From an uncultured Actinomycetes bacterium (lineage in GTDB: Bacteria; Actinomycetota; CADDZG01; JAHWKV01), in the NCBI GenBank assembly GCA_964501265.1, contig CAZCSK010000003.1, forward strand, positions 436 to 64,435: DNA of 64,000 nt. The letters are read 5' to 3'. The notes below the pieces were generated by a model. The model was given only the letters and a program-made list of their open reading frames with translations. It did no database searches and was not told the DNA's origin. Each line of letters begins with the position of its first letter. The first letter of the stretch is position 1. Shown here piece by piece: positions 8,055-38,559 of this stretch. A program made the translations under genes and the position numbers.

Positions 8055-8717
8055 GTGAATTTGATAGCAGCGATTAGAAACAACCGTAAGGCAGCAAGCA
8101 TGGTATCGAGGGCGGTAATCGTGGCGCTCATGACCGTGCCGACGCTGGTACTGACCGGGGCCTCACCGGCTCTGGCCTCCCACGGGCTCGGAGGAGGCAC
8201 GGTGACCTTCACGGGAACCGCCACCCTGCCCGAGTTCCCTGACCCCACCGGGACAGGCGGTCAGTTCACGGGCACGGCCAGCGGTTCACTCGACGGCGTT
8301 ACCCCAACTGTCGGGGGCACCGCGTGGGCGGCGGTCTTTGCTAGCGACACCATGACGGCGAGCTTCACCTATGACGAGCCCCCAGAGTGCTTGTCGGGGA
8401 CTGCCGACGGAGAGGGTTGGATAGATGGAGACGCGACGGGGCTATACGGCACGCGAACCGTGATTGACATCCACATCCACTTCAAGTTCAGTTGGGTGCG
8501 GATTGGAACGGCGGCCACCATCACCACCAGGGCCACGGTGGATCTCACCTTCGCAGACCCTCCACGCCGGGTGAGGGTGCTTACCGATGTGCCCGATACG
8601 GCCACGGCTGTGTTCACTCCGACGGATCCTACGCCGGATGACGATGATTGGTGCGCCGGCGGCCCTCAGACGGCCACTGTGGTTGGAACGGACCTTATCG
8701 TCGGCAACCACCTCTAG
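8055..8717 (+). CDS. Secreted hypothetical protein
   Basis: 220 aa with a GTG start preceded by GGAAAGGAG. Signal peptide (ALMTVPTLVLTGASPALA|SHG). The N-terminal NLIAAIRNNRKAA resembles the N-terminus of the 18487 gene. Confidence 0.6.
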   Translation: MNLIAAIRNNRKAASMVSRAVIVALMTVPTLVLTGASPALASHGLGGGTVTFTGTATLPEFPDPTGTGGQFTGTASGSLDGVTPTVGGTAWAAVFASDTMTASFTYDEPPECLSGTADGEGWIDGDATGLYGTRTVIDIHIHFKFSWVRIGTAATITTRATVDLTFADPPRRVRVLTDVPDTATAVFTPTDPTPDDDDWCAGGPQTATVVGTDLIVGNHL

Positions 8718-8751
8718 AAGGGTTGCCTGGCGATTAGCAGAAACAGAGGCG

Positions 8752-22003: not shown

Positions 22004-23857
22004 ATGGAACTAATAGCCCTGAGAGTAAAGCGTTTTCGTAGCCTTTACGAAACCGGCTGGATCCCGTTTTCCGACATCACAGTCCTCATCGGTGAAAACG
22101 ATGGCGGCAAGACCACGACCATCGACGCGCTGGACGTTCTTCTCGGGAACCGGAGCCTCGATGTCGGAGACTTTTCACACAGCGACAGCGCAGGGGCGGA
22201 AAGCGACGAGATCGAACGCGAGTCAGAACTGGCCATAGAAGTGAAGTTGAGAGTCACCGCTGCTGAGATGGATCAGGTTCGCAACGCAGCGCCTCTCGCC
22301 AAGTTCGATGGCGACACGCTGCACCTTGTCAGGAAAGGATCGCTCACCGAAGAGGGGCCGACGGTGTCGAGGCTCAAGATCGTGGCCATAGCTCCTGAAG
22401 ATCCGAGGCTCCACCGCGACGCCGACGGGCTCCGGCTGCAAGAACTGCGGCAGTTCGTCGACGAGCAGGTCATCAATGTAGCGGGTCCGCGCAACCAAAA
22501 GGATTCCTTCATCCAGGCGATCCTCGCAGCGGAGGAACATCTTTCATGGGGGCCGTGCGAACTGGAGGTGGGACCAGCGATCCTTCGAAGCCTCCCGATT
22601 CTTACCCTCTATCCGAACGATCTCGATCCCGAGCAAGTCGTCTCGACTGTCCTCCGCAGCGTCTTCGCTCAGGAGATCCGCTCGGACCACTATCAAGACC
22701 GGCTCGAGCAGATCGGAAGGGAGATCCGTTCGGTCCTGGATGAGGCCATCTCGCAACTCAAGCCGCTCGTGACGAAGTACCGACCGGACATCGCAGACGT
22801 TCGGGTGACGCCCCGGCTGGACTTCGAGCGGGGATATCAGGGCGCGGGGCTAGAGCTGATCGGGGGCAGCGGACAACCGATCAGTTTGGCCAAGCGGGGA
22901 CTCGGGATTCGGAACCAGGTCACGCTCGCAGTCTACGAATGGAACTCGGAAATTCTCCGGACGCGGATTGCCGAAGGTGTCCGCCCTACCATCCTCGCCT
23001 TCGATGAGCCGGACCTTCACCTCGACTACGGCTCCCAACGAAGACTCTTCGATCTGATTCGCGGTTTTGCAGGGCCGGGCGTACAAGTGGTCGTGGCGAC
23101 CCACTCGCTGAACTTCGTCAACCGAGTACCCATCTACAAGCTCAACGGTTACCGGCTGGATTCGGCGGCGCATACGGTTATCGAGAACGTTCCGTCCGGA
23201 CCTGAGGCTGAAGAACTTTTCCTTTATCAGCTCGGGGCCGGGATGGGATTAGAGAACAGTCTTATGTTCTACGAAAGGTGCTTCCTCGTGGTCGAGGGCC
23301 GCACGGAGATGCCCTTGCTTCCCCGCCTCTACGAACTGTACACGGGAGCGAGCATGTGGTCGGAAGGGATCCGACAGCTAGACGGTGAGGGCAACGGCGG
23401 AGCGCGCCTATTCGCCAAGTTCCTCAACCGAAGCCGGCGAAACGTGGTGTTCCTCGTCGATGAGGACGCGATGACCGCTCCCGGGTCGGGGCGCGTCTTC
23501 TCGAAGGAGCAGCTTCTGGCTGACGGTTTCGATGTTGAGACTCAGGTTCACTTCGTGGGACCACGGGAATTGGAAGAGGCCTTCTCCAACGAAGTCTGGG
23601 CCCGCGTCGGAAATGCCTTCTACCCGCGAGACGGAGATCAGTCTTGGAAGGGTGAGGACTTCGAGCAAATGCGTCACGATCAGCAGCGCAAGTTTAAGGA
23701 CGCCCTGCTGCAGGCCTTTAGAACGGATCCCGCAACCTTAGGTCTGAAGCTTGCGCACGCCGTCGAGGTGGCGGATGAGATTCCGGAGCCAATTCGCAGC
23801 TGCTTCGACGGCGCGCGAACCATCGCCAATAGAATGGCAGGAGAGGGGCTTTCGTGA
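22004..23857 (+). CDS. OLD-family ATP-dependent nuclease (ABC-type ATPase + Toprim)
   Basis: 617 aa. N-terminus RVKRFRSL...VLIGENDGGKTT (Walker A), ILAFDEPDLHLD (Walker B) and VVVATHS. C-terminal Toprim-like LVVEGRTE ... VFLVDEDA. Confidence 0.75.
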   Translation: MELIALRVKRFRSLYETGWIPFSDITVLIGENDGGKTTTIDALDVLLGNRSLDVGDFSHSDSAGAESDEIERESELAIEVKLRVTAAEMDQVRNAAPLAKFDGDTLHLVRKGSLTEEGPTVSRLKIVAIAPEDPRLHRDADGLRLQELRQFVDEQVINVAGPRNQKDSFIQAILAAEEHLSWGPCELEVGPAILRSLPILTLYPNDLDPEQVVSTVLRSVFAQEIRSDHYQDRLEQIGREIRSVLDEAISQLKPLVTKYRPDIADVRVTPRLDFERGYQGAGLELIGGSGQPISLAKRGLGIRNQVTLAVYEWNSEILRTRIAEGVRPTILAFDEPDLHLDYGSQRRLFDLIRGFAGPGVQVVVATHSLNFVNRVPIYKLNGYRLDSAAHTVIENVPSGPEAEELFLYQLGAGMGLENSLMFYERCFLVVEGRTEMPLLPRLYELYTGASMWSEGIRQLDGEGNGGARLFAKFLNRSRRNVVFLVDEDAMTAPGSGRVFSKEQLLADGFDVETQVHFVGPRELEEAFSNEVWARVGNAFYPRDGDQSWKGEDFEQMRHDQQRKFKDALLQAFRTDPATLGLKLAHAVEVADEIPEPIRSCFDGARTIANRMAGEGLS

Positions 23858-24066
23858 AGATTATCCCGGTGGCCTCTACCAACATAGAAGCCATCGGCTA
23901 TGACGAGGCGACTCTCATTTTGCGGGTGGTGTTTCGGAACGGGTCGGTTTATGAATACCTGGGTGTGCCCCTCAAAGTGTTTGGCGAGTTCAAGGCGGCA
24001 CCTTCGAAGGGAAGGTTCGTGAACAGTGCTCTCCGCCGACGTTACAGGTATCGGCGAATCCGATGA
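23854..24066 (+). CDS. KTSC-domain protein
   Basis: 70 aa with a GTG start in a GTGA overlap with the OLD stop. The whole protein fits the KTSC pattern (SSxIxAIGYDxxxxxLxVxFxxGxVYxYxxVPxxVFxxFxxAxSKGxFxN). Confidence 0.8.
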   Translation: MKIIPVASTNIEAIGYDEATLILRVVFRNGSVYEYLGVPLKVFGEFKAAPSKGRFVNSALRRRYRYRRIR

Positions 24067-24223
24067 TCCACACTTGGACCCGCTAGGGCAACGAGGGCCT
24101 GAAGGGTCATGCGCGAGGGAACGGTAGATCCAGCGCGATTGAGTCTAGTCAGGGTGGGACCTGAACCAGCTTGCGTAGGGCCGGACCTCAGCGTCCCTTG
24201 GGTCATTGACCAAAAGTCTTCCT

Positions 24224-24463
24224 TCACTTCCCGATAAACCGGACCCGGGTCGAATCGAAGCGCTCGCGCGAAAGCCAGAAGCTCGACGATGTCGACTCAC
24301 TGCCGACCGGGCTGCCGCGCTGGAAACGAAGGAGTGTGACCGGGCCGAGTAGCGGAGCTAGGTCGTCCTGCAACATCCCCACCTGCCGGAGACGTGTTTC
24401 GGTAAACACACAGCCGATGAGTTTGTCATTGCTGAGGTCGCGGATGTGCTTCGGTTTAGGCAT
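24224..24463 (-). CDS. XRE-family HTH regulator (paralog 1, divergent)
   Basis: Start moved to the internal Met (MPKPKHIRD...) by homology with MPKAKRKR... of 26092..26343. HTH-like core (RLRQVGMLQDDLAPLLG). More degenerate than paralog 2. Confidence 0.55.
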   Translation of the reverse strand: MPKPKHIRDLSNDKLIGCVFTETRLRQVGMLQDDLAPLLGPVTLLRFQRGSPVGSESTSSSFWLSRERFDSTRVRFIGK

Positions 24464-24477
24464 GGTCGTCTTGGGAT

Positions 24478-24527
24478 ACATGCCGCACGCTGGAACCGAA
24501 ATCTCGATATCCAAAAAGTGGATAGAG
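24478..24527 (-). promoter_or_regulatory. Conserved promoter/operator-like segment upstream of XRE paralog 1
   Basis: GAACCGAAATCTCGATATCCAAAAA (24493..24517) is identical at 24 of 25 positions to 26371..26395. Contains the inverted repeat TATCCA-N5-TGGATA. Sits at the same distance from the start codon as in paralog 2. Confidence 0.6.
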
Positions 24528-24597
24528 CGATAGGATTAGATCTTTCCCAACGACGAGGAGTGCGCGTGCTCATGCGGCGACCAAAGGCCAGGCGATT

Positions 24598-26061
24598 ATG
24601 AGCGAGTGGCTGGCCGCCGGAAGATCGCTTAGCAGGATCGGTCAGCCGGATCGCGAAAGGCAGCGTGCCTTGGAAAGAGCCCTCGAGAAGCAAACGATCA
24701 CGGAGCCTCCGAGAAGACTGGTGTGTCCGCTGCTGGAGGCTGGCTCTGAAGGTCGCGACCTCAAAAAGAAGTCCGAAGACGGTAGCAGCAGCGGGTTTGG
24801 AGTCCCGGATTGGCTTCTGGGTCCTCTCGTCGTTGCGGCGATTGCGCTACTAAGACGGGCCTCACAGGTGGGACTGGAGCGGACTGTTCCTCCTCGCTTC
24901 CTTCCGTGGATGGGAGGTCCGCAGAAAGTTGGTTCAAAACAGCAGAAGATGATCCTCAAAGAACTTGGGCAGCACGCGCTCTTTACGCAAGCCGTCTTTG
25001 AACTATTCAATTTGTCCCATGCTCCGTGTGTAAGGACGTACGAGAAGCTCTCTCTCGAACAAGTACTTGATGATTTGGAGCGACGGGACGACGAGCCCGA
25101 CCACCTCGTCTGCCTGCTTCTCGCTTCGGGTCGAGGATCAGATGCGCAGGCGGTTGCAGTTTGGGCAAAGCAGCAAGTGTTGGTGCAAGCATTTGATCCA
25201 CCCTCTCAAGGAAACCTCATTGGGACGAGTGATTCCGATCTGGATGTCAGTGGCCTTCACCGAGCACTCGAGGAAGAACGCCGATCTCGAAAGCGAGCGG
25301 AGCATGCGCTAATAGGGGCCGAGCGCTCCGAGGAAGCACATAGCAAAAGAGCTGTTGATGCCGAGCAGCAAGCGGTGGATGCGTACAGGAAGGTCGCCAC
25401 GGCCGCTGAAGAGGCGATCGAATTGAGCGAACAGATTGCGAAACTCAAGACTGAACTCCGGAAGACCGCTCGTGAACGTCGGACCCTGCTTCTGGAGCGG
25501 GAGCGTCTGCTAGGGCGATTTTTGCGCGCACGTCGCGACCTGAGAATGATCCGAGCTAAAGTGCCGGATCAGGTTCCAATATCTGCTGGATGTTTGTTTG
25601 AGGTCAGTACCTCAAGACCGCCGCCGTCAGTAGGTGAGCTAAACGAGCGGTATCGAAGCGGGGGATCCAGATCAGTCCTGGAGGCAAAGCCGCTGATCTT
25701 GATGATCGATGGGTGGAACGTGGTTCTGGGTCACATGCTGACTGGCAATCTGAGGGACCGCCGCCTTAGGTTGGAGCGGACTCTAGCCGGTTACGAGGCC
25801 CGAACTGGCAACCGGGTGCTGGTCGTTTACGACGGCCGGGAGGACGTATCGATAACAATGCCTCAGGCCCGAGGGATCCTTCGAGTATTCACCCTTGAAG
25901 ATGAATCGGCCGACGACTACATCGTCTCGGAGTTGGAAATCGGAACCGGTTTGCTCGCACCCGTGGTAGCCACCTCGGACCGGGAGCTTGGGCGCAGGTG
26001 CAGAGATTTTGGGGCGTTTGTCGTTACCTCAGACGAGCTTGCCCGTTTCCTCAAATTGTAA
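24598..26061 (+). CDS. Coiled-coil protein with C-terminal YacP/Rae1-like NYN ribonuclease domain
   Basis: 487 aa. Charged coiled-coil-like segment (about residues 225-320). C-terminal NYN pattern ILMIDGWNVV ... VLVVYDG ... VFTLEDESADDYI ... VVATSDRELGRRCRDFGAFVVTSDEL. Confidence 0.7.
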   Translation: MSEWLAAGRSLSRIGQPDRERQRALERALEKQTITEPPRRLVCPLLEAGSEGRDLKKKSEDGSSSGFGVPDWLLGPLVVAAIALLRRASQVGLERTVPPRFLPWMGGPQKVGSKQQKMILKELGQHALFTQAVFELFNLSHAPCVRTYEKLSLEQVLDDLERRDDEPDHLVCLLLASGRGSDAQAVAVWAKQQVLVQAFDPPSQGNLIGTSDSDLDVSGLHRALEEERRSRKRAEHALIGAERSEEAHSKRAVDAEQQAVDAYRKVATAAEEAIELSEQIAKLKTELRKTARERRTLLLERERLLGRFLRARRDLRMIRAKVPDQVPISAGCLFEVSTSRPPPSVGELNERYRSGGSRSVLEAKPLILMIDGWNVVLGHMLTGNLRDRRLRLERTLAGYEARTGNRVLVVYDGREDVSITMPQARGILRVFTLEDESADDYIVSELEIGTGLLAPVVATSDRELGRRCRDFGAFVVTSDELARFLKL

Positions 26062-26091
26062 TCCGCTCGGTCCGAGATGGGGAGCGTCGGT

Positions 26092-26343
26092 TCACCTGAG
26101 CGACCCCCGAAGTTGACGAACGAACCGGGCCGGGTCGAAACTTAGCGCTTCGGCGAAGGTGAGCAACTCGACAACATCCACCCGATGCTGCCCGGCCTCG
26201 ACGTTTGAGACGAACGACTGGGGTCGCCTCAAGAGCTTTCCAACCTGAGCCTGGGTCATACCAAGCTTTCTCCTGCGGTCCGCGAGCAGGCGACCGATGA
26301 CTTCGTACTTCTGGAAGTTCCGCTTGCGTTTCGCTTTGGGCAT
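26092..26343 (-). CDS. XRE-family HTH regulator (paralog 2)
   Basis: 83 aa with the classic pattern RRRKLGMTQAQVGKLLRRPQSFVSNVEAGQHRVDVVELLTFAEAL. Confidence 0.85.
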   Translation of the reverse strand: MPKAKRKRNFQKYEVIGRLLADRRRKLGMTQAQVGKLLRRPQSFVSNVEAGQHRVDVVELLTFAEALSFDPARFVRQLRGSLR

Positions 26344-26355
26344 GACCCCTCCTGG

Positions 26356-26405
26356 GCATGCCGGATGCTAGAACCGAAATCTGGATATCCAAAAACTAGA
26401 TGGTC
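26356..26405 (-). promoter_or_regulatory. Conserved promoter/operator-like segment upstream of XRE paralog 2
   Basis: Duplicate of 24478..24527. Contains the perfect palindrome TGGATATCCA (26382..26391). Lies in the divergent region shared with the ECF sigma gene. Confidence 0.6.
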
Positions 26406-26659
26406 TCCACCGGCTGGCAAAGTCACCGCCGGGTAAATGCTCGGGAGGACGCTGGTTTGCGGACCTCGTCTGCGCGAGAGAATCTTGTTCTGGCTTAGTT
26501 GGCCGCCGTTCGAGATTTCTGGTGGCCACGAATCAGGAGTTTGGTGGCCGTTAGTCGGGACTTTCGAGCTCCTTGTGACCTTGTCCTCGAGGGCCCTGGT
26601 ATTGTACACTTACCGCCGTCGGACGGGTCGAGGGTGCAGTCGGAAGCCAGGGGCTAACA

Positions 26660-27748
26660 GTGGCCGTTGATATCTCAGAGATCTCGGATGGTGCTCTGGT
26701 CAGGCGCCACCTGGAGGGAGAGGAGCAGGCTTTCGAGGAACTATTCGACCGTTACTACACTCGCCTATTCCGGTTTTGCCTCCAACGAGTCGGCGATCGG
26801 TCTGCATCGGAAGACATCGCCCAGGACACCCTGCTTCAGGCGCTCAAGTATCTGCAGGGTTTCGATCCGAAGCGCCCCATGTGGCCGTGGCTCAAGACCA
26901 TCGCCGGGCACCTGATCGGCCGGTTTATTGGTGTCAAACACGAAGAGCAGTCCCTCATCGAAACTTGGGTCCCGAGCGCTGCCAGCGTACACGACGCAGC
27001 CGACCTACTTGGGGAAAAGGAACTCCTCGGCTTGGCCCTCAAAAGGCTCGCCCCCTCGCAGCGAAATGCGATCAGTCTTCGTTACCTCGACGAGTGGAGC
27101 CCTAAAGAGTTGGCTGAGTTTCTCGGGGTAGGCAAACACGCAGTCGAGCAACTGCTCTCGAGGGCGCGAGTGAAACTGCGCGAAGAGTACCGCCGCTTGT
27201 CGAGTGAGGGCCGGGAGAGACTCGGATTGGTCTGTCCCCCGCTGCTGGTGCGTGTTCGAAACAGGTTTCGACAGTGGGCTGCAAACCTTCGCGGCGAGAA
27301 CGGGCTGGTCCAAGCCGGCGCGAGCGGTGCGCCTCTCATTAATCAGCTGCTGGGTCTGATCGCCGCAGGTGTTGCGATCGTGCTACTCGCAGCCGGAAGC
27401 ATTCATGGCCCGAATGCGTCTGGAGCCGCCGCGGCCCGGCAAGGGCAAGGGCACATAGGGTCGCCGCACGCTGGCATCCAGGACGCCGGGCAACGCGAGA
27501 CCATCTTCAAGAGAAGTTCCCGGTCGGTGCATATCTCGACAGACCAGATGGTCGGCGGCGCACCGGGGTCTGCTTCGGGATCCGTGGAAGTTAAGAAGAA
27601 TTCACTGCGCGCCAGGCTTGAGGCAAAAACCCCTGGGGATCACCACATCATCGTTCCGGTCTGGATCGAGACCAATGCCGAATGTGATTATTCCGCCGTC
27701 CAACAGGCTTTGTGCGAGATGGTCGATAGGTTGCCGGACCAAGACTGA
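26660..27748 (+). CDS. ECF-type sigma-70 factor with fused C-terminal transmembrane/extracytoplasmic extension
   Basis: 362 aa with a GTG start. Region 2 (FEELFDRYYTRLFRFC, DIAQDTLLQAL) and region 4 (LAPSQRNAISLRYLDEWSPKELAEFLGVGKHAVEQLLSRAR). These are followed by a TM helix (LLGLIAAGVAIVLLAAG) and a ~110-aa tail. Confidence 0.8.
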   Translation: MAVDISEISDGALVRRHLEGEEQAFEELFDRYYTRLFRFCLQRVGDRSASEDIAQDTLLQALKYLQGFDPKRPMWPWLKTIAGHLIGRFIGVKHEEQSLIETWVPSAASVHDAADLLGEKELLGLALKRLAPSQRNAISLRYLDEWSPKELAEFLGVGKHAVEQLLSRARVKLREEYRRLSSEGRERLGLVCPPLLVRVRNRFRQWAANLRGENGLVQAGASGAPLINQLLGLIAAGVAIVLLAAGSIHGPNASGAAAARQGQGHIGSPHAGIQDAGQRETIFKRSSRSVHISTDQMVGGAPGSASGSVEVKKNSLRARLEAKTPGDHHIIVPVWIETNAECDYSAVQQALCEMVDRLPDQD

Positions 27749-27812: not shown

Positions 27813-28067
27813 TCAGACAGGCCTCGGTACGCGGACACTGAAGCCAGCGCCATACCCGTCAACGGTCGGATCGGCCCCGGCGCCAATATGAGCCCACTCA
27901 TCAAACACCGTAACGCAGTCGCCCACGGGGGTTGAATTCCCCGCTTGCCAGATTCGCACTTCCGCGCAAACTTCTGCACTAGCGGCCGGAGCAAACAGGC
28001 CAATAACTCCTACGACTACCAGCACGACCGTCAGAAGAATTGTGATGCGCCTCGACTGTGTTCTCAT
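27813..28067 (-). CDS. Small secreted hypothetical protein
   Basis: 84 aa with a signal peptide (ILLTVVLVVVGVIGLFAPAASA|EV) and two Cys residues in the mature part. Confidence 0.5.
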   Translation of the reverse strand: MRTQSRRITILLTVVLVVVGVIGLFAPAASAEVCAEVRIWQAGNSTPVGDCVTVFDEWAHIGAGADPTVDGYGAGFSVRVPRPV

Positions 28068-28550: not shown

Positions 28551-29192
28551 ATGCAGGCCGCTGAAGCCGTCGTTCCTCGCACCGCCGCTAGGCTCCGCCG
28601 GATTGATCTTCGGGTGGGGGTTGGAATTTTTCTCATGGCGCTTTCGCTGATCGGCTCGACCGCGCTTATTCGAAAAGCCGAGGCAAGATTGTCGGTCCTT
28701 GTGGCCGCTCACACTGTGGAGCCTGGTTCGGTTATCCAAGCGTCGGACCTGCGCGTAGAGAGCATCTCGTTAACCGGTGGAGTGGCCTACCTCGGCGAAA
28801 AGCGAAGGAACGCGGTCGTCGGCAAGATCGCAGCCGAGCAGCTTTGGCCCGGGAAGCTTCTCAGTTCATCCTCGGTCGCGGACACGGCGAAGCTGCCCGC
28901 CGGGTATGTGGCGATGAGCCTCGCCTTAAAGCCCGACCGCGCGGCGGGAGGGCAGCTGCGCCCCGGCGACCACGTGGCCGTGATCGCTTCGACTTCGCCC
29001 GACCGTCCTAACGCGAGCACCAGACTTCTCTTGACCGACGTTCCCGTCCTTTCTATAAGGCAGGGGGATGCCGCCGATGGCGGCGCCGTGATCGTTACTC
29101 TCCGGCTGCGCTTGGAGGAAGCTCGCGACCTTGCCGAAGCGCGATCCGCCGGGTCGATCGATCTTGTGCTTCTCTCGGGGGCTAAGTCGTGA
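28551..29192 (+). CDS. cpaB: Flp pilus assembly protein CpaB-like (SAF domain)
   Basis: 213 aa with GAAGGAGGG upstream. N-terminal TM helix and a SAF-like segment (VLVAAHTVEPGSVIQASDLRV). First gene of the tad operon. Confidence 0.75.
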   Translation: MQAAEAVVPRTAARLRRIDLRVGVGIFLMALSLIGSTALIRKAEARLSVLVAAHTVEPGSVIQASDLRVESISLTGGVAYLGEKRRNAVVGKIAAEQLWPGKLLSSSSVADTAKLPAGYVAMSLALKPDRAAGGQLRPGDHVAVIASTSPDRPNASTRLLLTDVPVLSIRQGDAADGGAVIVTLRLRLEEARDLAEARSAGSIDLVLLSGAKS

Positions 29193-29920
29193 GCCTGATC
29201 GCGGTCGGCTGTGGCAAGGGGTCACCGGGTTGTACATTCGTCGCGATCAACCTCGCTGCTGCCATTGCGGCCTCGGTCGGCGAGGCTCTGCTCATTGACT
29301 TGGACTCTCAGGGCGCCGATATTTCTGCTTATCTCGGGCTTGATCCAATGCGTGGTCTTTACCCGCTGATGCGATTAGAGGGCAGAGTGCCCTCCCCCGA
29401 CTCGCTTCTGCGCGAGGCAGAGCCTTGCGGAGACCTCCTGTGTATTGGTGGTTTCCCAAGGGCAGAGGACGCCGATGTCGAAATGATCCGCAAGGTCCTC
29501 GACGCTTGCCGCGAAACCCCCGGCACCGTCGTGGCGGACCTTGGCCGCGTCTCCCCTCAAACCGCCGATCTGTTCACGAAGGCGGACCTCGTACTGATCG
29601 CGGTCGGCCCCGACATGATCGGCACCTACGGCGCAGAGCGAGCCATCGAAACTCTCAAAAGATCGGGCGTCGCCGAGGCCAAAGTTGGCGCAGTGATAAC
29701 CGGGTGGGAGTGGCGGCGCGCGGGCGACCTCGCCGAGGTCGTGCAGGCAGTGTCGGCAAAAGTAATCGGGACGATCCCGCTCGACCGTCGAGAAGCGCGC
29801 AGGGCTCTTGCACAACAACGGCCCCTCAACCGCGGATCAGCCGCCAAGGCCTTCAGTGCGCTGGCTGCGGAGACGCTGGCAGTGATCGACGAGCGAACCG
29901 AGAAAGTGTTTGCGCGATGA
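29189..29920 (+). CDS. tadZ: TadZ/CpaE-like ParA/MinD-fold protein with a degenerate P-loop
   Basis: 243 aa with a GTGA overlap. Its position between cpaB and tadA is typical. The P-loop position reads GCGKGSPGCT rather than KGGxGKT. Confidence 0.6.
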   Translation: MSLIAVGCGKGSPGCTFVAINLAAAIAASVGEALLIDLDSQGADISAYLGLDPMRGLYPLMRLEGRVPSPDSLLREAEPCGDLLCIGGFPRAEDADVEMIRKVLDACRETPGTVVADLGRVSPQTADLFTKADLVLIAVGPDMIGTYGAERAIETLKRSGVAEAKVGAVITGWEWRRAGDLAEVVQAVSAKVIGTIPLDRREARRALAQQRPLNRGSAAKAFSALAAETLAVIDERTEKVFAR

Positions 29921-31203
29921 GCGGCATCGATTCACTCATCGCGCAGGCCCGGGAAGCCCTTAGCTTAAAACTGGCCGAGTCGTCCCTGATCCGTCCGACC
30001 GAGAGCGAGGAAAGAGAAGCGATAGAGGTTCTCGAAGATCTGATCGAGAAGGAGAACCGTCGCCGCGTCCACTCGTCAGAGGCAACGTTGTCCGAACCCG
30101 AGCAGAAGCGCCTCCAGCGCAGGCTCTTCGACCTCTTCTTTCGCCTTGGTCCCCTTCAGCCGTATCTCGACGACGAGAGCCTGGAAGAAATCACTGTGAA
30201 CGCGCCGCACCGGGCATTCGTCGTTCAGGCCGGGGGCGAAAAGCGTGAGATCGACCCGGGCTTTTCCTCCGACGATGAAGTGCGGACCTTTGTATCGCGC
30301 GTCGTAGCGCGCGCCGGCCGTCGTGTCGATGATGCCTCGCCGTCGATCGACGTAAGGCTGCCCGACGGCGAGCGACTGCATGCGATGCTGCCGCCGATCT
30401 CGCGACACGTTTGCATCACCATCCGACGTCACCGCCTCGTCGCCGAAACTCTGGACGATCTGATCACTTTGGGCACCGTCACGCGGGAGGCCGCCGGATT
30501 TCTCACCGATGCTGTCAAGAGCGGGGTAAACATCCTTGTCTCTGGAGGCACCGCCTCCGGCAAGACCACAACACTCAATGCCCTCGGCCGAGCGATCCCG
30601 GTGAATGAGCGCGTCGTCACTGTGGAGGAGACGAATGAGCTGCGGCTCGAGGAGCTGCTCGCGGACTGCGTGGCTCTTGAAGCCCGGCCGCCGAACGCCG
30701 AAAGGGTCGGGGAGGTCTCGATTCGAGAGCTGGTTCGGGCGGCTCTTCGCATGCGCCCAAGCCGAATCATTGTCGGTGAGGTTCGCGGACCCGAGGCGCT
30801 CGACATGCTCTCGGCGATGAACACCGGCCACGAAGGTTCGATGGGGACTATCCACGCCAACAACGCCCGCCAGGCCATCACCAAACTTCGGACCTACTTG
30901 CTCATGGCCAAAGAGGAAGTGCCGGCTGAGGTCGCCGCCGACATGATCGCCGAGACGATCCAACTAGTCGTGCATCTTGAACTCGACAAGTCGGGCAAGC
31001 GCAGGGTGGTCCAGATAGCAGAGGTCGCCGGGCTCGAAGGCGGCCGCGTTCTGACCAACGACCTATATCGGCTGGAGCGCGGAGAGCTCACGGCGACCGG
31101 CCTGCGCCCAAGGTGGAATGACCGACATTCCGAGTTCGGGCCTCATGAACCGCTGGCTGTCGGCTCGGTCGACGGTAACGGGAGCGCGTCATGGAAGCGC
31201 TAG
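29917..31203 (+). CDS. tadA: Tad pilus secretion ATPase CpaF/TadA
   Basis: In-frame ATG 29917 (MSGIDSLIAQ...) in an ATGA overlap. Walker A VSGGTASGKTTTLNAL. T2SS-E motifs (RPSRIIVGEVRGPEALDML, NTGHEGSMGTIHAN). Confidence 0.9.
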   Translation: MSGIDSLIAQAREALSLKLAESSLIRPTESEEREAIEVLEDLIEKENRRRVHSSEATLSEPEQKRLQRRLFDLFFRLGPLQPYLDDESLEEITVNAPHRAFVVQAGGEKREIDPGFSSDDEVRTFVSRVVARAGRRVDDASPSIDVRLPDGERLHAMLPPISRHVCITIRRHRLVAETLDDLITLGTVTREAAGFLTDAVKSGVNILVSGGTASGKTTTLNALGRAIPVNERVVTVEETNELRLEELLADCVALEARPPNAERVGEVSIRELVRAALRMRPSRIIVGEVRGPEALDMLSAMNTGHEGSMGTIHANNARQAITKLRTYLLMAKEEVPAEVAADMIAETIQLVVHLELDKSGKRRVVQIAEVAGLEGGRVLTNDLYRLERGELTATGLRPRWNDRHSEFGPHEPLAVGSVDGNGSASWKR

Positions 31204-31982
31204 CCCTCGGGGTCATCTTCGCTCTCGGCGTCCTTTTTATATACGACGCGCTCACAAGACCGGACGCCAAGCTTGAGCCGAGGAAGTGGATCTCACGAAT
31301 CGGTCCTCGGGGAGCTGGTGCAATCGCTGGCGCGGCGACCGCCTTCCTTCTGACTCGCTGGCCAATGGCCGGAGTTGCCGGAGCAATCCTTGGAGGGCTA
31401 GCCCCGGCGCTAGTCGCCCGGGCACGCGCAGAGCGAGAGCGAGTCCGCCGGATGGAAGCAATCGCCGAACTAGCCATGCGCCTTCGCGACGCCATTCGTT
31501 CCGGCATTGGAATTCACGACGCCCTCTCACAGGCCGCCGCCAGGCCGCCGGTCGCGATCGCGTCTGAACTTCGAAGACTCGCCGCCGACGCCAAGGTGTC
31601 CGGGATGGACGTGGGGACCGCGACCTTCGCAGCGCGACTGGGGCAGGACGCTGAACTGCTTGCCGGCGCACTCCTCCTCGGCGAACAGCTGGGAGCGCGC
31701 AACACGTCTGACGTTCTGGACGCTCTTGCCGAGGCCACGTCCGCCAAAGCGGCGACCCTTCGTGAAGCGAGAGCGCGGCAGACAAGAGCCAAATCCTCTG
31801 CTCGGATCGTTGCGGCGATCCCGCTCCTGCTGCTCCTGGCAATTCGTTACTCCAATCCCGCTTACCTCGCACCATTCAACGCAGTGCAAGGTCAGCTCGT
31901 TCTAATGTTTGCCTTCGCGCTTATCGGTTTGGGCTACGCGGCGATGTTGCGGGTGGCCCGTCTCGAAGGAAGGAGCGGGTAG
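31191..31982 (+). CDS. tadB: Tad pilus inner-membrane platform protein TadB (T2SS-F family)
   Basis: 263 aa. Position and TM/cytoplasmic-domain pattern are typical of TadB. Confidence 0.75.
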   Translation: MEALALGVIFALGVLFIYDALTRPDAKLEPRKWISRIGPRGAGAIAGAATAFLLTRWPMAGVAGAILGGLAPALVARARAERERVRRMEAIAELAMRLRDAIRSGIGIHDALSQAAARPPVAIASELRRLAADAKVSGMDVGTATFAARLGQDAELLAGALLLGEQLGARNTSDVLDALAEATSAKAATLREARARQTRAKSSARIVAAIPLLLLLAIRYSNPAYLAPFNAVQGQLVLMFAFALIGLGYAAMLRVARLEGRSG

Positions 31983-32912
31983 ATGGGCGCGGCTTTCATG
32001 GTCGGACTTACCTTCGGGGTCGGGATCCTTCTTGTTCTCACCGGGCAACCGATAGGGCGCGCCCGCCCGAGCATTGCCTCGCGCCTTCAGGCTCTTCGGC
32101 CTGATCGCCCACCGCAAACAACGTCTGAGAGGGTGCCAGCTTTCCGCACGAGGATTTTCGAGGAGATCCTGCGCCCATTGATCGAGCGCGGCGGCGAGGC
32201 GCTTCTGGCGGTTGCGCGCCGTCTTGGTCTCGATCTTGGAGAAACAGCTTCGCGCCTGATGGCTACCGGCGACCCCGGAGGGCTCGGCCTGTTCCTCGGC
32301 CAGAAGATTACCACCGGACTTCTCGGCCTCGCCTTCCTACCGGCGGCCGCAGCACTCGGCGCTTTTCCGCAGACTCCGAGCTGGATCTGGGTCTCGGCAG
32401 GCCTCATGGGCTTTCTGATGCCGGATGCCATTCTTCGCTCCAAAGCGGAGGCGCGCCGGCGGGAACTTCGCGAGGGCCTTGCGCGGTTCGCGGATCTAGT
32501 GTCGCTTTCGGTCTCGGCGGGGCTCGGTCTTGAGGGCGCGCTCGAGGAGGTGTCGCGGCGCTCCGAAGGTCCTTTCTTCGAATATCTACGGCGAGCCCTT
32601 CGTGAGACCCGACTACGCGGCGAGCCGGCATCGACGGCCCTCACCCAACTCGCACAGGATCTCAGGTTGGCCGACGCCGAACCCCTTGCGAGCGCGCTGG
32701 CGTCCGCCCAGTCCCACGGGATCCCCGTTTCGCAGGTCCTTCGCGCTCAAGCGCGCTCTATCCGGGAGCGACGCCGCATCGAACTGGTCGAAGCCGGCGA
32801 GCGGGCACAGACTCGGATGGTCTTGCCGGTCGGTCTTTTGATCCTTCCGGCTTTCTTCCTGCTCGTTTTGTATCCGGCCGCCGTGCAATTGCTGCAAGTG
32901 ACGGCGAAATAG
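31983..32912 (+). CDS. tadC: Tad pilus inner-membrane platform protein TadC (T2SS-F family)
   Basis: 309 aa. Directly follows tadB (the stop is immediately followed by ATG). T2SS-F-like C-terminal part (LPVGLLILPAFFLLVLYPA). Confidence 0.75.
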   Translation: MGAAFMVGLTFGVGILLVLTGQPIGRARPSIASRLQALRPDRPPQTTSERVPAFRTRIFEEILRPLIERGGEALLAVARRLGLDLGETASRLMATGDPGGLGLFLGQKITTGLLGLAFLPAAAALGAFPQTPSWIWVSAGLMGFLMPDAILRSKAEARRRELREGLARFADLVSLSVSAGLGLEGALEEVSRRSEGPFFEYLRRALRETRLRGEPASTALTQLAQDLRLADAEPLASALASAQSHGIPVSQVLRAQARSIRERRRIELVEAGERAQTRMVLPVGLLILPAFFLLVLYPAAVQLLQVTAK

Positions 32913-32929
32913 TGAAGGGGGGTGGTGAG

Positions 32930-33112
32930 ATGCGGTTCAAGTTGTGGAGGTTTTGGTCCCGGGTGTCCGGCGATGGCGGAGAGGTCTATGTCGAGTACGC
33001 CGTGCTAGCGGCCGTTGCAGTACTCGTGATCCTGTTCGCGATCCAGTACTTCTTCGGAGGAATCGCCCAGGTGTTCCAACGCATGGGTGATGTTTTGAGA
33101 GGAATCGGATGA
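32930..33112 (+). CDS. flp: Flp-family pilin
   Basis: Start chosen at ATG 32930 after GGGGGGTGGTGAG. The processing-site-like GDGG|EVYVEYAVLAAVAVLVILFAI fits the Flp G|xxxxEY motif plus a hydrophobic helix. Confidence 0.75.
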   Translation: MRFKLWRFWSRVSGDGGEVYVEYAVLAAVAVLVILFAIQYFFGGIAQVFQRMGDVLRGIG

Positions 33113-34865: not shown

Positions 34866-35653
34866 CCTTAGCCTTAATTCTCCCTTTGATGGGAGTTCGG
34901 GCGGCGGCCGATGATGAACAGCAGGCTCGCTATCGGAACAAGCGGCTCTCCACCGCGACTGTCTACACGACGCCGGATGCCGCCGTCGTTGAGGCCGATA
35001 GCGCGGGTGGCGTGTCCGCGGCATCTTCAGTCAAGGCGACCCGGAGAAGGCAATGCCGGCTAGAACCGGTTCTCGCCAATGTCACCTCGAGCAACGTCGA
35101 CATTTACGCGGCACATCAAGGTGAGACGGATTTCTTTCTCTACTGTGACGGCGAGTACGTGGGTCTAGTGTGGCGCAAGATAGACTCCGAACCCCGGGCG
35201 GGCATTTCGATGACACCGGGCGATGTCGCCGAGCACCTCCGTGACGAGATTCCAATGCCGACAGTAAATGTCCGCATCAACCCGGACGTGGGTCTGGTTG
35301 GCGCCGAGTCGTGGTTCTGGATCGAAGGATACTCAGGGGAGGCGATCACCAACTCGACCGACGCACTCGGAAGAGCGGTTGAGGTCGAGGCGAGGGCCAT
35401 TCATTACGAGTGGTTCTTCGGAGACGGATCTACGGCCGCAGCGACGACAACGGGCACGGCCTATCCCGAGAGGTCGCAGATCCGGCATGTGTTTCAGCGG
35501 GCCTCGTCCGGTGGGTATGGGGTCGATGTGCGCTTTACATTTGCGGTCCGGTATCGCGTGGACGGCGGGGCATGGATCGAGCTTCCCGGTATCAGCCGGA
35601 CGGCAACGGCGACCTATCGGGTTAGGGAATCTCAAGCAGTGATATCGAAATGA
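34820..35653 (+). CDS. Secreted hypothetical protein (tad operon)
   Basis: 277 aa with a signal peptide (LALALALILPLMGVRAAA|DD). PKD-like W.FGDGS motif. The start is uncertain (46-nt overlap with the upstream gene). Confidence 0.5.
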   Translation: MEGRRNHRLSIALALALALILPLMGVRAAADDEQQARYRNKRLSTATVYTTPDAAVVEADSAGGVSAASSVKATRRRQCRLEPVLANVTSSNVDIYAAHQGETDFFLYCDGEYVGLVWRKIDSEPRAGISMTPGDVAEHLRDEIPMPTVNVRINPDVGLVGAESWFWIEGYSGEAITNSTDALGRAVEVEARAIHYEWFFGDGSTAAATTTGTAYPERSQIRHVFQRASSGGYGVDVRFTFAVRYRVDGGAWIELPGISRTATATYRVRESQAVISK

Positions 35654-38559
35654 AACGCATTCTCTCTTTCGCCGGATTGGTGCTCGTGCTCGTGGGCATG
35701 CCTTTTGTTCTGAATGTGCTCGTGGGCAGGCCCCACATGCTTCGCGTGGACCTATCAGAGGTGAAGGAGACTCTGTCGGGTTCTTTCCTGTCGGTCGATT
35801 CTGTCATTCGAGGCCTTGGGCTTCTTACGTGGGTCTTGTGGGCATACCTCTTTATTGTCGCGAGCCTGAGGGTGGCGGCGATCATCTTCGTGCAGCGGGG
35901 ATCGCCGGCCGGCAATGCACTGATGTCCGCGACATCACGCATGGCGCCCTCTCTGCTGCTCAAACTCGTCGATGTCGCGCTCGGAGGCATTATGTTGCTG
36001 GGCCCGATTTCCATGGCCAGAGCCGGTCCCGGAGTCTTCCCCACGCCTGCAGCTGGCATCATTCAGACAGCAATGCAACGCGCGGACGTCCCGAACGACC
36101 GTGACCAACCTGAAGTTTCGCGTTCTTACCTTGTCCGGCCGGGTGATTCCCTTTGGCGGATAGCGGAACGTGAACTCGGCTCGGGTAGCTCATGGCAGGC
36201 GATTTACGCGCTCAACCAGGGCCGGCACTTCTCTGACGGCCGAGTCCTCGACAACCCGCGCCTCATCCGGCCGAACTGGGTTCTATGGCTTCCCGGGGCG
36301 GCCGAACCGACATCGAGTACGCCCGTTCAATCAACGACCGCGCCCGTTCAATCAACGACTGAACTTGGATCGATCGAGGTGGTCCCTTCGGTCAACGGAC
36401 ACACCGCCCCAATCTCCCCTCCTCCTGCTGGCGTCGAACCCTCCCGTGACCCAATCTCCCCTCCTCATGCTCCTGTCCAACCCTTCCCTGACCCGATCGT
36501 GAACCTTCCGTCGGGCACCGGGCTTGCGGCATCGTTCGCCTCCGGCATTCTCGCTTCCCAGGCCGTGGTGGCGCTCCGACGACGACGGCGTTATATCCCC
36601 GGCGAACCTAAAGTAGATTCGGCCGAGCCGGCCCTTGTAGTCGACCTTCGTCGCGCCCGTCTCTCCCCGGAGACCGATCTTCTCGAATCCGCCGGTGCAG
36701 AACTAGCGGCCGTCTGGAAGGAACAGTCGGGGAGATGGCCGCCGATTGTTTGCGCGACCGAGCACAAGGATCGGGCAACATTTCTGATCGACGATGCGGG
36801 GGAGATGGAGCTGAAGTCCACCTCGCGCGTCGCCTTTACCCGTCTGGACAAATACGTGCGCGCGGAGATCAAGAAGCCTTTTGTTCAGAGCATGGATCGT
36901 CCCTCGGCTCTGGAGGAGGGTCTTCTGATTCCCATTGGTTCAACGCGTTCGGCAGGGGCAGTGCACGCTGGACTCCTCGCGACCGGGGCGCTGGCCATGA
37001 CCGGGCCAGATGCTCACCGGTTGATGATCCAATCTGTGCTGGCCTGCGTCGGCGGACGCAGCCCGGACGATGTTGAGATCTACTTACTAGGCGCGCCCGA
37101 GGGGTTTGGTCGATGCGTCGAATTGCCCCACATCAAACGAACAAGCTCTTGGGAGGATGCCGAGGCGACCCTACGCGCGATCGAGCTAGAGATTCTGAGG
37201 CGCTCGCGGGTCTTCCTCGACGGAGGATTCTCAGACCTTTGGGAACGGCTGGCTTCAGACCAGGACGAGTTTGGGCCCGCCCTCTTGGTTGTCGCGAGCG
37301 ATCCACCTGCCGCATTGACCGGAGTGCTCGATGGGCTTGCCGCCCAGACCTTGAACAACGGATGCGCCCTCCTAGCCTCGGGGTGGCGCCCGTCTGTCGC
37401 GCGAATCGAGCTTAAGGTTGATTCCACGATCGAAGTTGTTGCCGATGTGCCCGTAGCTTCCGAACCACTGCGCCCGACCCTGCTCGATGACGGCGCCGTC
37501 GAAGAGGTGATCGAGATCATCCTTGCTGCACACCCGCGGAATGCCGAGCCTCGCGAGATCCAGGTCTTCCCCGAGGTGGAGGCGATCAGTGAGAGCCCGG
37601 AGCCGAGCCCGTCGAGCGAACTTGAGTCAGAACTGCGCGCATCGACGGAGCAAGTACTCGACATTTCCGAAGACGAGGAACTTGGGGAAGGTCATGTTGA
37701 GTTGCCGGCCGGAGAAGCGCGCACAGTCATGACCACGCGGCTGATAGATCGGATCGGTCCGCCCGATGAGCACCAGGCCGGAGAACCAGTTGAGGCGCGT
37801 TGCTTGGGTAATTTTCTCGTGTCTCGCGACAGTCTGGCTCTCAATGGGTGGAAAGCGAGATCAAAGGAGCTGCTCGCGTATCTCATCGCTCACCCGGATG
37901 GTGTTTCTAAGGATCGAATAATCGATACGTTTTGGCGAGACTCCAAGAAAAAGAGCGGAGATCATCTACTTAGAGATGCGATCTACCACCTTCGGCGACA
38001 GGTTGCCGGAGGGGAGGACTACAAGTGGTCCGAGGGTTACGTAACCCGCGCGGGCGATCTGATAGCTCTGGAGTCGGGACGTTGGTGGTCGGACGCGTGG
38101 ACGTTCGAGGCGCTCATCAACAAGGCCCGCGAACTTGAGAACGGGGATTCAATTGCGACCTTGCGCCTGGCCCTGGACTTGTACCGTGGAGACTTCTGCG
38201 ACGACACATACTATGCGTGGAACGAGCCTATCCGTGAGCGCTACCGGCGTCTCTTTATTGACGCAACATTCAAACTCGCGGAACTGCTGGAGGTTCAAGG
38301 AGAAGTGGAGTCGGCCGTCCATGCGCTAAATCGTGGTATCGAGGTCGATCCCCTTTGCGAGGAATTTTACCGAAGGGCGATCAAGATCGAAGCATCACTT
38401 GGCCGTACGAGCGCAGCACGGACTCGTTATCAGAAACTAACGTCGGTTCTCGCCGATGAACTCGGTGAGGACCCCGATCCGCAAACGCAAGAACTGATGA
38501 GAAGGCTAAGGAAACCAGAACGGACTCACCCCGAACCGACAGCGATCCACCCTCGCTGA
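35650..38559 (+). CDS. Membrane-anchored LysM / degenerate FtsK-like / winged-helix + BTAD (SARP-type) regulator
   Basis: 969 aa with an ATGA overlap. N-terminal TM helices. LysM (YLVRPGDSLWRIAERELGSGSSWQAIYALN). Pro-rich repeats. The middle shows an FtsK/SpoIIIE-like pattern lacking a Walker A Lys. C-terminal OmpR-type wHTH (VEARCLGNFLV...ELLAYLIAHPDGVSKDRIIDTFW) and BTAD (LDLYRGDF...YRRAIKIEASLGRTSAARTRYQKL). Confidence 0.75.
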   Translation: MKRILSFAGLVLVLVGMPFVLNVLVGRPHMLRVDLSEVKETLSGSFLSVDSVIRGLGLLTWVLWAYLFIVASLRVAAIIFVQRGSPAGNALMSATSRMAPSLLLKLVDVALGGIMLLGPISMARAGPGVFPTPAAGIIQTAMQRADVPNDRDQPEVSRSYLVRPGDSLWRIAERELGSGSSWQAIYALNQGRHFSDGRVLDNPRLIRPNWVLWLPGAAEPTSSTPVQSTTAPVQSTTELGSIEVVPSVNGHTAPISPPPAGVEPSRDPISPPHAPVQPFPDPIVNLPSGTGLAASFASGILASQAVVALRRRRRYIPGEPKVDSAEPALVVDLRRARLSPETDLLESAGAELAAVWKEQSGRWPPIVCATEHKDRATFLIDDAGEMELKSTSRVAFTRLDKYVRAEIKKPFVQSMDRPSALEEGLLIPIGSTRSAGAVHAGLLATGALAMTGPDAHRLMIQSVLACVGGRSPDDVEIYLLGAPEGFGRCVELPHIKRTSSWEDAEATLRAIELEILRRSRVFLDGGFSDLWERLASDQDEFGPALLVVASDPPAALTGVLDGLAAQTLNNGCALLASGWRPSVARIELKVDSTIEVVADVPVASEPLRPTLLDDGAVEEVIEIILAAHPRNAEPREIQVFPEVEAISESPEPSPSSELESELRASTEQVLDISEDEELGEGHVELPAGEARTVMTTRLIDRIGPPDEHQAGEPVEARCLGNFLVSRDSLALNGWKARSKELLAYLIAHPDGVSKDRIIDTFWRDSKKKSGDHLLRDAIYHLRRQVAGGEDYKWSEGYVTRAGDLIALESGRWWSDAWTFEALINKARELENGDSIATLRLALDLYRGDFCDDTYYAWNEPIRERYRRLFIDATFKLAELLEVQGEVESAVHALNRGIEVDPLCEEFYRRAIKIEASLGRTSAARTRYQKLTSVLADELGEDPDPQTQELMRRLRKPERTHPEPTAIHPR
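36321..36359 (+). repeat. Short in-frame tandem repeat (21-nt period) in the Pro-rich linker
   Basis: GCCCGTTCAATCAACGAC occurs at 36321..36338 and 36342..36359, encoding PVQSTT twice. Confidence 0.8.

Follow-up and report, generated by a model that had tools for sequence, protein, structure and literature searches.

What is a nuclease-like protein of 487 residues doing between two loci for XRE-type repressors? The question is raised by a stretch of DNA of 64,000 nucleotides from an uncultured Actinomycetes bacterium (assembly GCA_964501265.1, contig CAZCSK010000003.1, positions 436 to 64,435), referred to below as the window. An uninterrupted open reading frame (ORF) of 1464 nucleotides, set in a context of 58% GC, occupies positions 24598-26061 of the plus strand and encodes a protein with a YacP/Rae1-type NYN domain. 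A divergent XRE-like ORF (24224-24463, minus strand, 80 codons) lies upstream of it, across an intergenic region of 134 nucleotides, and an intact, convergent XRE gene, here called XRE2 (26092-26343, minus strand, 83 residues), lies 30 nucleotides past its end. A further 316 nucleotides separate XRE2 from a divergent gene for an extracytoplasmic function (ECF) sigma factor (26660-27748, plus strand; Pfam Sigma70_r2 and r4_2, NCBIfam sigma70-ECF). An original prediction, made by reading the sequence, had recognised this layout, and we confirm it; it had also likened the arrangement to an RNase effector of the toxin or abortive-infection type under the control of XRE repressors, and this we do not support. 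The explanation we favour, with about half of our confidence behind it, is that the locus encodes a coiled-coil NYN endonuclease that descends from a repair operon and is repressed by XRE2.

The nuclease domain was called correctly. The Pfam family NYN_YacP matches residues 368-485 with 52.4 bits (cut-off 24.6, E 8e-14) and matches each of 18 aligned relatives as well. Two features mark this family, a 'GYN' motif after the first aspartate and at least four conserved aspartates (Matelska 2017, PMC5499597). The motifs DGWNV, VYDG, SADDYI and TSDREL are all present in the window protein, whose catalytic domain spans codons 345-485 (25630..26052, plus strand). Residues D371, D412, D439 and D461 are invariant among 18 family members and align with D7, D53, D81 and D104 of Bacillus subtilis Rae1, so that any doubt as to whether the catalytic aspartates would appear on alignment is settled. 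These four account for four of the ten invariant columns in the 18-sequence alignment, where identities run from 21 to 42%. In Rae1 itself, the double substitution D7N D81N yields a catalytically dead enzyme (PMC10351889). The 'GYN' motif reads D371-G-W-N, with tryptophan replacing tyrosine in the sub-clade linked to RmuC and AdnAB that is described below, and tyrosine in remote members. A profile built from the protein and four homologues retrieved Rae1/YacP from the PDB (5MQ8/5MQ9, E 7e-10), and the three best Foldseek matches were 5mq9_B, 5mq9_A and 5mq8_A (E 2.5e-6 to 2e-5, TM(target) 0.60-0.63). Sequence and predicted fold together show a putative YacP/Rae1-type NYN nuclease with a complete four-aspartate metal site.

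The rest of the protein has little in common with Rae1, which is about 170 residues long. The AlphaFold2 model of all 487 residues has a mean predicted local distance difference test (pLDDT) score of 82 and begins with a disordered tail (residues 1-60). This is followed by an all-alpha domain (codons 71-198; 24808..25191, plus strand) and a single long helix of about 105-107 residues (codons 215-321; 25240..25560, plus strand; pLDDT 80-96). Modelled alone, the all-alpha domain reached a pLDDT of 90 and a predicted TM score of 0.82. The homology and structure check proposed for the N-terminal part thus gave a confident fold and no remote relative: Foldseek against the PDB returned nothing significant (best E 0.84), PDB sequence profiles and NCBIfam were silent, and no Pfam domain is found here in any of the 18 members. 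The models therefore show what looks like a novel, family-specific all-alpha domain without known fold relative, and its VPPxLxPLAG motif is conserved in the family alignment. The long helix, for which the PDB profile search gave only weak matches, to keratin and dynein coiled coils, is a probable coiled-coil oligomerisation stalk. The coiled-coil segment of the original prediction has thus materialised as one modelled helix, while its possible transmembrane helix has not: the segment concerned (residues about 71-91) forms the first helix of a bundle predicted to be soluble, where pLDDT exceeds 90, and homologues have charged residues in it; we rejected the membrane assignment.

Is this protein simply the actinobacterial orthologue of Rae1, that is, a housekeeping, ribosome-associated mRNA endonuclease acting on stalled or collided ribosomes, next to which an XRE gene was duplicated by accident? 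The shared Pfam family, the fold, the D-G-[YW]-N motif and the catalytic aspartates invite this view. According to a 2026 survey preprint, 45% of Actinobacteria genomes have Rae1 homologues (PMC13622287). The architecture argues otherwise. The Pfam match covers positions 1-127 of the 166 of the model, and the protein stops 26 residues past its last catalytic aspartate, against about 66 in Rae1; it must therefore be without the last 40 or so positions of the YacP model, the site of two basic C-terminal alpha-helices typical of NYN_YacP and Rae1. In their place, at the opposite end, it carries an extension of some 340 residues (tail, all-alpha domain and long helix) that is foreign to Rae1.

This long architecture is not peculiar to the window. 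The original prediction had set the protein apart from short housekeeping YacP proteins, as if its length were exceptional; our exhaustive profile search retrieved 1803 family proteins, and of the 153 best representative clusters 114 are of the long form (at least 360 residues), many of the 153 matching over their entire length. The long form is thus the usual one in Actinomycetota. These proteins (COG3688, uncharacterised) come from Actinomycetota or Acidimicrobiia metagenome-assembled genomes (MAGs) and are named, where a name is given, by JGI or NCBI 'predicted RNA-binding protein with PIN domain' or 'NYN domain-containing protein'. They share with the window protein the three-part architecture and the motifs VPPxLxPLAG, DG[YW]NV, VVFDG, TADD and TSD. 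The literature searched contained no work on the long actinobacterial form, nor on the operon described below. The closest relatives align in full over residues 65-487, at 33-43% identity. A second profile search, with 18 sequences, contributed one useful protein (P0159).

Within its clade, the window protein is an outlier. Its identity to the other members is 33-42%, against 44-84% among those members themselves, and of 97 positions invariant in nine of them it keeps 82 (85%, compared with 90-99% for the others). Could it be a dead gene in a patch of decaying accessory DNA? This divergence, the loss of invariant positions and the presence of a pseudogene next door (see below) speak for such decay. 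However, the long ORF is uninterrupted, the four catalytic aspartates and most of the invariant positions are kept, and the folds of all three domains are predicted with high confidence. We consider decay very unlikely; alignment and ORF integrity show what appears to be an intact, divergent member of the actinobacterial long YacP/Rae1-type clade.

For the gene context of the clade, about nine distinct loci could be seen, all on metagenome or MAG contigs (L002 and L003 being taken together). In six of the nine (L001, L004-L008), the NYN gene is preceded by a gene for RmuC and followed by one for an AdnA-like protein combining a UvrD helicase with a PD-(D/E)XK nuclease domain. A second, AdnB-like gene comes next in L005-L007, where the contig extends that far. 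Genes overlap by four nucleotides in L001 and L004, where gene calls exist. The arrangement can be viewed as a conserved RmuC-NYN-AdnA(-AdnB) operon of Actinomycetota MAGs, for instance at positions 6559-15486 of L005, with overlapping stop and start codons. In L002/L003, the NYN gene lies downstream of a fragment of an Lhr helicase gene and of an AAA_14/DUF4143 gene, and in L022 it lies beside an integrase gene and a VapBC pair. More remote long members, 20-25% identical, are found near qcrCAB and trpD: P0159 and P0015 (L010 8118-11443 and L023 4547-8347) are divergent from an Rv2191-like gene combining RNase_T, GIY-YIG and UvrC_M domains, beside qcrCAB and trpD, and P0017 is near trpD. The Rv2191-like gene is a second, independent neighbour of DNA-repair type for the NYN family, in two lineages.

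These associations bear directly on the Rae1 hypothesis. Rae1 works in the A-site of the ribosome, its gene being grouped with gltX, cysS, mrnC and yacO, and the genes around yacP in Firmicutes are more generally translation and RNA genes (PMC5499597), whereas the operon partners of our family are DNA-repair genes. The recurrence of such neighbours argues against a simple transfer of the ribosomal function. The remote long members do occupy core-genome positions, near qcrCAB and trpD, as a housekeeping gene might; the window copy, however, is the outlier of its clade and has accessory surroundings, and its conservation points to continued use of the leader described below. On balance, we regard orthology with Rae1 in function as rather unlikely.

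The window copy does not share the context of its relatives. It does not lie between rmuC and an adnA-like gene, and no relic of either was recovered from the 64 kb when six RmuC and four AdnA-like proteins served as tblastn queries. Its neighbours are instead genes for an OLD-family nuclease, a KTSC-domain protein, the XRE loci and the ECF sigma factor, followed by tad pilus genes. One outcome that the original prediction had set against itself was that of a conserved housekeeping gene with the same neighbours across the lineage: shared neighbours (RmuC and AdnA/AdnB-like) do exist for most of the relatives, and the window copy is without them. The comparison shows a gene apparently relocated out of a repair-operon context into an accessory patch, beside the OLD-KTSC gene pair.

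How might a relocated gene of this kind be controlled? Of the two XRE paralogs initially described, only one is alive. XRE2 is a single-domain protein matching Pfam HTH_31 (E 4.5e-11), and its Shine-Dalgarno sequence, AGGAGG (26348-26353), lies 5 nucleotides upstream of the ATG. The upstream locus, by contrast, is an XRE/HTH_31 pseudogene (24218..24463, minus strand). The called ORF has no Pfam match. Aligned with XRE2 at the DNA level, the locus displays two separate single-nucleotide indels, both in the region of the recognition helix, and, once these are repaired, a TGA where XRE2 has an arginine codon. Similarity to XRE2 accordingly crosses three frames: frame 0 (MPKPK...LLGPV), frame 1 (SHSFVSS) and frame 2 (a glutamine and a stop, then VDIVELLAFARALRFDPGPVYREVKE). 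By tblastn, only a C-terminal remnant is detected (24222-24314), in a frame other than that of the called ORF. Repaired by hand, the translation aligns with XRE2 at 45% identity (E 3e-22) and matches HTH_31. The Shine-Dalgarno sequence has decayed to AAGACGA, and the hexamer at the -10 position is CAGCGT, against TAGCAT in XRE2. The locus is identical in a second assembly. All these features indicate a pseudogene, and a pair of active paralogs is thus no longer tenable.

Upstream of both loci, a leader has been kept. The original prediction had reported a conserved segment of about 50 nucleotides preceding each XRE gene, and this is borne out: the two copies (24479-24523 and 26357-26401, both on the minus strand) are 45 nucleotides long and 87% identical, and include a 25-mer with 24 of 25 positions identical, which occurs only twice in the window, where no occurrence is expected by chance. 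Their distance to the ATG, given earlier as identical, differs slightly (15 and 13 nucleotides). The duplicated unit comprises an XRE gene and about 65 nucleotides upstream of it, in direct orientation on either side of the NYN gene. Identity is 87% in the 45-nucleotide core, 61% in the coding sequence and 38-44% in the flanks. When matches were permuted over the 300 aligned columns, the observed 25-nucleotide or 45-nucleotide maximum was reached in 0.7% of trials (p about 0.007). Conservation of the first copy, even though its gene is dead, suggests that this copy is still used as an operator.

Both copies contain inverted repeats, as had been noted. Copy 1 carries a perfect dyad, TATCCA-N5-TGGATA (24508-24524), about 75 nucleotides upstream of the NYN start codon. 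Copy 2 carries the palindrome TGGATATCCA at 26382-26391 and an imperfect dyad, ATCCA-N5-TAGAT, on the plus strand (26387-26401); together these lie 39-58 nucleotides upstream of the XRE2 ATG. Arranged around the shared central TGGAT, the three half-sites read ATCCA-N5-TGGAT-ATCGA in copy 1 and ATCTA-N5-TGGAT-ATCCA in copy 2. It is thus the dead copy that has kept the perfect N5 dyad, whose half-sites are centred 10 bp apart; the live copy has kept an abutting palindrome. A spacing of 10 bp is typical of sites bound by a helix-turn-helix (HTH) dimer. In copy 2, a -35-like TTGGAT and TAGCAT, separated by a 16-nucleotide spacer, form a putative promoter for XRE2; in copy 1, we would see an orphan promoter/operator core. 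A strict sigma-70 consensus scan of positions 23800-26800 found no site, so these hexamers are our own reading of the sequence. Such a negative scan is unsurprising in a high-GC actinobacterium.

The leader is best read as a DNA-level promoter/operator. We rejected the possibility of an RNA element, as folding z-scores were +0.67 and -0.62 and Rfam gave no match at E up to 1. A coding extension or small ORF was likewise rejected, a 2-nucleotide indel putting copy 2 out of the XRE2 frame; in the ORF that overlaps both copies, three of the four substitutions are, by our reading, non-synonymous, which argues against coding constraint. An exact scan of JGI metagenomes with a 21-mer of the core gave two matches (L017 3547-3567 and L018 127-147), which we attribute to chance since they fall inside an AMMECR1-like coding sequence (..ELDIEISVLSP..). 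Viral contigs contained no match to this 21-mer.

XRE2 itself has few detectable relatives. The best one (54% identity, L011) directly precedes a DUF7690/DUF7687 gene and a D12 methylase gene on a contig bearing parA, an arrangement that resembles the controller-protein cassettes of restriction-modification systems. Another, at 42% (L012 6001-8189), is followed by a second HTH gene and faces an OLD-like TOPRIM/AAA_21 gene in convergent orientation. This second locus echoes the OLD/pseudo-XRE arrangement of the window, its OLD protein sharing only a domain with that of the window. XRE2 also matches the PADLOC 'Control_protein' model (E 3e-5). These contexts and this match give XRE2 the appearance of a regulator that is mobile or linked to defence. 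It would be comparable to autoregulated Cro/C1-type XRE proteins, including the C proteins of restriction-modification systems, in being an HTH protein of about 80 residues with a dyad predicted to lie over its own likely -35 element, and in having a best homologue that precedes a nuclease-methylase pair. It differs from C proteins in its setting: no restriction endonuclease or methyltransferase gene was found near it in the window, where it is flanked by the convergent NYN gene and the divergent ECF sigma gene, and where a dead copy has left an orphan operator.

Does this make the NYN protein a toxic effector held silent by XRE repressors, in a defence island with the OLD nuclease? Several observations point in this direction. 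The OLD gene next to the locus (22004-23857, plus strand; 617 residues, Pfam AAA_15/AAA_21 and OLD-like_TOPRIM) matches the PADLOC models AriA, Old and GajA at about 1e-24, GC content drops to 0.57-0.58 over about 23-26.5 kb compared with 0.60-0.65 in the flanks, one clade member (L022) has VapBC and an integrase as neighbours, and the NYN gene is preceded by a conserved orphan operator. The contexts of OLD and of XRE2 and its homologues are the main evidence left for a defence role. Toxins of the PIN/VapC type with HTH or ribbon-helix-helix antitoxins, like the CRISPR-associated NYN RNase of Bacteroides fragilis, are also PIN-like metal-dependent nucleases with an HTH gene nearby. Those proteins, however, are either short toxins of a single domain, encoded in two-gene operons with both genes in one direction, or the products of CRISPR ancillary genes, whereas the window protein is large and multi-domain and has no HTH operon: pseudo-XRE1 is dead and divergent, and live XRE2 is convergent, hence not co-transcribed. 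As for a conserved pairing, the comparative survey of XRE-NYN adjacency that had been proposed came out against it, since neither an XRE2-like ORF (tblastn, E up to 10) nor the ATCCA-N5-TGGAT motif was found near the NYN gene in any of 12 relative loci; the gene tables of L022-L024 list no HTH gene either. The NYN protein belongs to none of the PADLOC or PHROG families, no relatives of it were found in viral contigs, phage genomes or plasmids, and no viral fold in BFVD was significantly similar. XRE2, for its part, scored 31.6 bits with the HipB/Y4mF antitoxin model, far under the cut-off of 71.65. With its closest relatives sitting in DNA-repair operons, a toxin or phage-defence role is not supported, and we judge the toxic-effector explanation quite unlikely. 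A defence-type role could still apply to the window copy, which adjoins an OLD-family nuclease rather than repair genes.

The idea that the leader was kept as a plus-strand promoter for the adjacent ECF sigma factor, which would place the sigma and NYN genes in one regulon, seems to us highly improbable: GGAACC (24492-24497, toward the NYN gene) and AGAACC (26370-26375, toward the sigma gene) do resemble, to our eye, ECF-type -35 elements, but neither copy has a recognisable ECF -10 (CGT or GTT) at 16-18 nucleotides, the sigma start is about 285 nucleotides away, and the dyad symmetry, together with a position overlapping the XRE2 -35, better fits a repressor site.

We thus come back to repression by XRE2 of a nuclease with repair-operon ancestry. 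In mechanistic terms, the NYN protein would be a metal-dependent endonuclease that oligomerises through its long helix, with the N-terminal domain binding a partner or substrate. The ancestral task of the family, judged by gene association, would be tied to the processing of broken or recombining DNA, or of RNA-DNA hybrids formed there, and would probably not be A-site cleavage in the manner of Rae1. XRE2, the sole functional copy, would autoregulate at its own dyad and would also bind the orphan perfect dyad upstream of the NYN start, so that the relocated nuclease gene would be repressed in trans; this control through the orphan operator is something we infer. Several points weigh against this explanation. 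The window copy has no adjacent RmuC/AdnAB genes and no remnant of them, so the repair function is transferred from relatives that are 33-43% identical. Three of the nine or so loci (the window, L002/L003 and L022) are without RmuC context, and all nine or so are on metagenome or MAG contigs. Rae1, the one member of the family to have been characterised, is an RNase whose substrate is translated mRNA. The sigma-70 scan identified no promoter for the NYN gene. Binding of XRE2 to either dyad is putative, the live copy having the less perfect N5 dyad, and a patch of gene conversion could instead be the reason why the 25-mer was retained. Going further, and with low confidence, one may conceive of the long actinobacterial YacP-type NYN proteins not as ribosome nucleases of the Rae1 kind but as accessory nucleases for double-strand-break repair and recombination (alongside RmuC-AdnAB, Lhr or the Rv2191-like nuclease), of which the window copy would have left the repair operon and been exapted under XRE control, through the orphan operator, to act with OLD as a stress or defence effector.

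Translation may add another layer of control. A possible ORF of 9 codons (MRRPKARRL and a stop; 24572..24601, plus strand), read from the sequence and speculative, ends in a TGA that overlaps the NYN start codon (ATGA). A strong Shine-Dalgarno sequence, GAGGAG (24555-24560), lies ahead of this small ORF, and that of the NYN start itself is weak. A leader peptide translationally coupled to the NYN gene is possible.

Upstream of the locus, the OLD gene overlaps by four nucleotides (GTGA) a gene for a KTSC-domain protein (23854-24066, plus strand, 70 residues, Pfam KTSC). We know of no description of an OLD-KTSC pairing, and neither a GajB nor an AriB partner of the OLD nuclease is present. Homologues of the OLD gene, at about 30% identity, stand alone amid transposase and restriction genes on Streptomyces linear plasmids. 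We rejected OLD-KTSC-XRE as a conserved module, given these stand-alone homologues and the mere domain-level resemblance of the OLD-like protein in L012.

On the other side of XRE2, the original prediction had proposed cross-regulation with the ECF sigma gene, which is suggested by adjacency only. The sigma factor has 362 residues. Regions 2 and 4 finish near residue 180, followed by a hydrophobic stretch, LINQLLGLIAAGVAIVLLAAGSI, at about residues 218-240 and a tail of some 120 residues; it may be a membrane-tethered sigma factor or one fused to its own regulatory domain. A cluster for a tad/Flp-type pilus (RcpC/CpaB, a ParA-like ATPase and further genes; 28551-33000, plus strand) comes after a gap of 800 nucleotides, which holds an ORF of 84 codons (27813-28067, minus strand) with a hydrophobic segment at its N-terminus. 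Two large ORFs elsewhere in the window are consistent with an actinobacterial contig: one of 1385 residues with a SpaA prealbumin-like domain (8587-12744, plus strand) and one of 969 residues with LysM and BTAD transcriptional activator domains (35650-38559, plus strand).

The window protein emerges as a new, divergent and apparently relocated member of a large, unstudied actinobacterial variant of YacP/Rae1, an outlier of the RmuC/AdnAB-linked sub-clade found outside its operon. The locus in itself is modest, with an uncharacterised nuclease gene, one live repressor and one dead one, and is outweighed in interest by the comparative lead, the RmuC-NYN-AdnAB operon. Many of the 'Rae1 homologues' surveyed in Actinobacteria are probably proteins of 400-500 residues whose architecture is unlike that of Rae1. 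As their gene partners include RmuC, AdnAB, Lhr and an Rv2191-like nuclease, assigning the ribosome-rescue function of Rae1 to these long forms may be an error. If the idea of an orphan operator is true, the locus would also offer a small, clean example of how a repressor, once duplicated and with one of its copies dead, can draw a relocated gene into its regulon.

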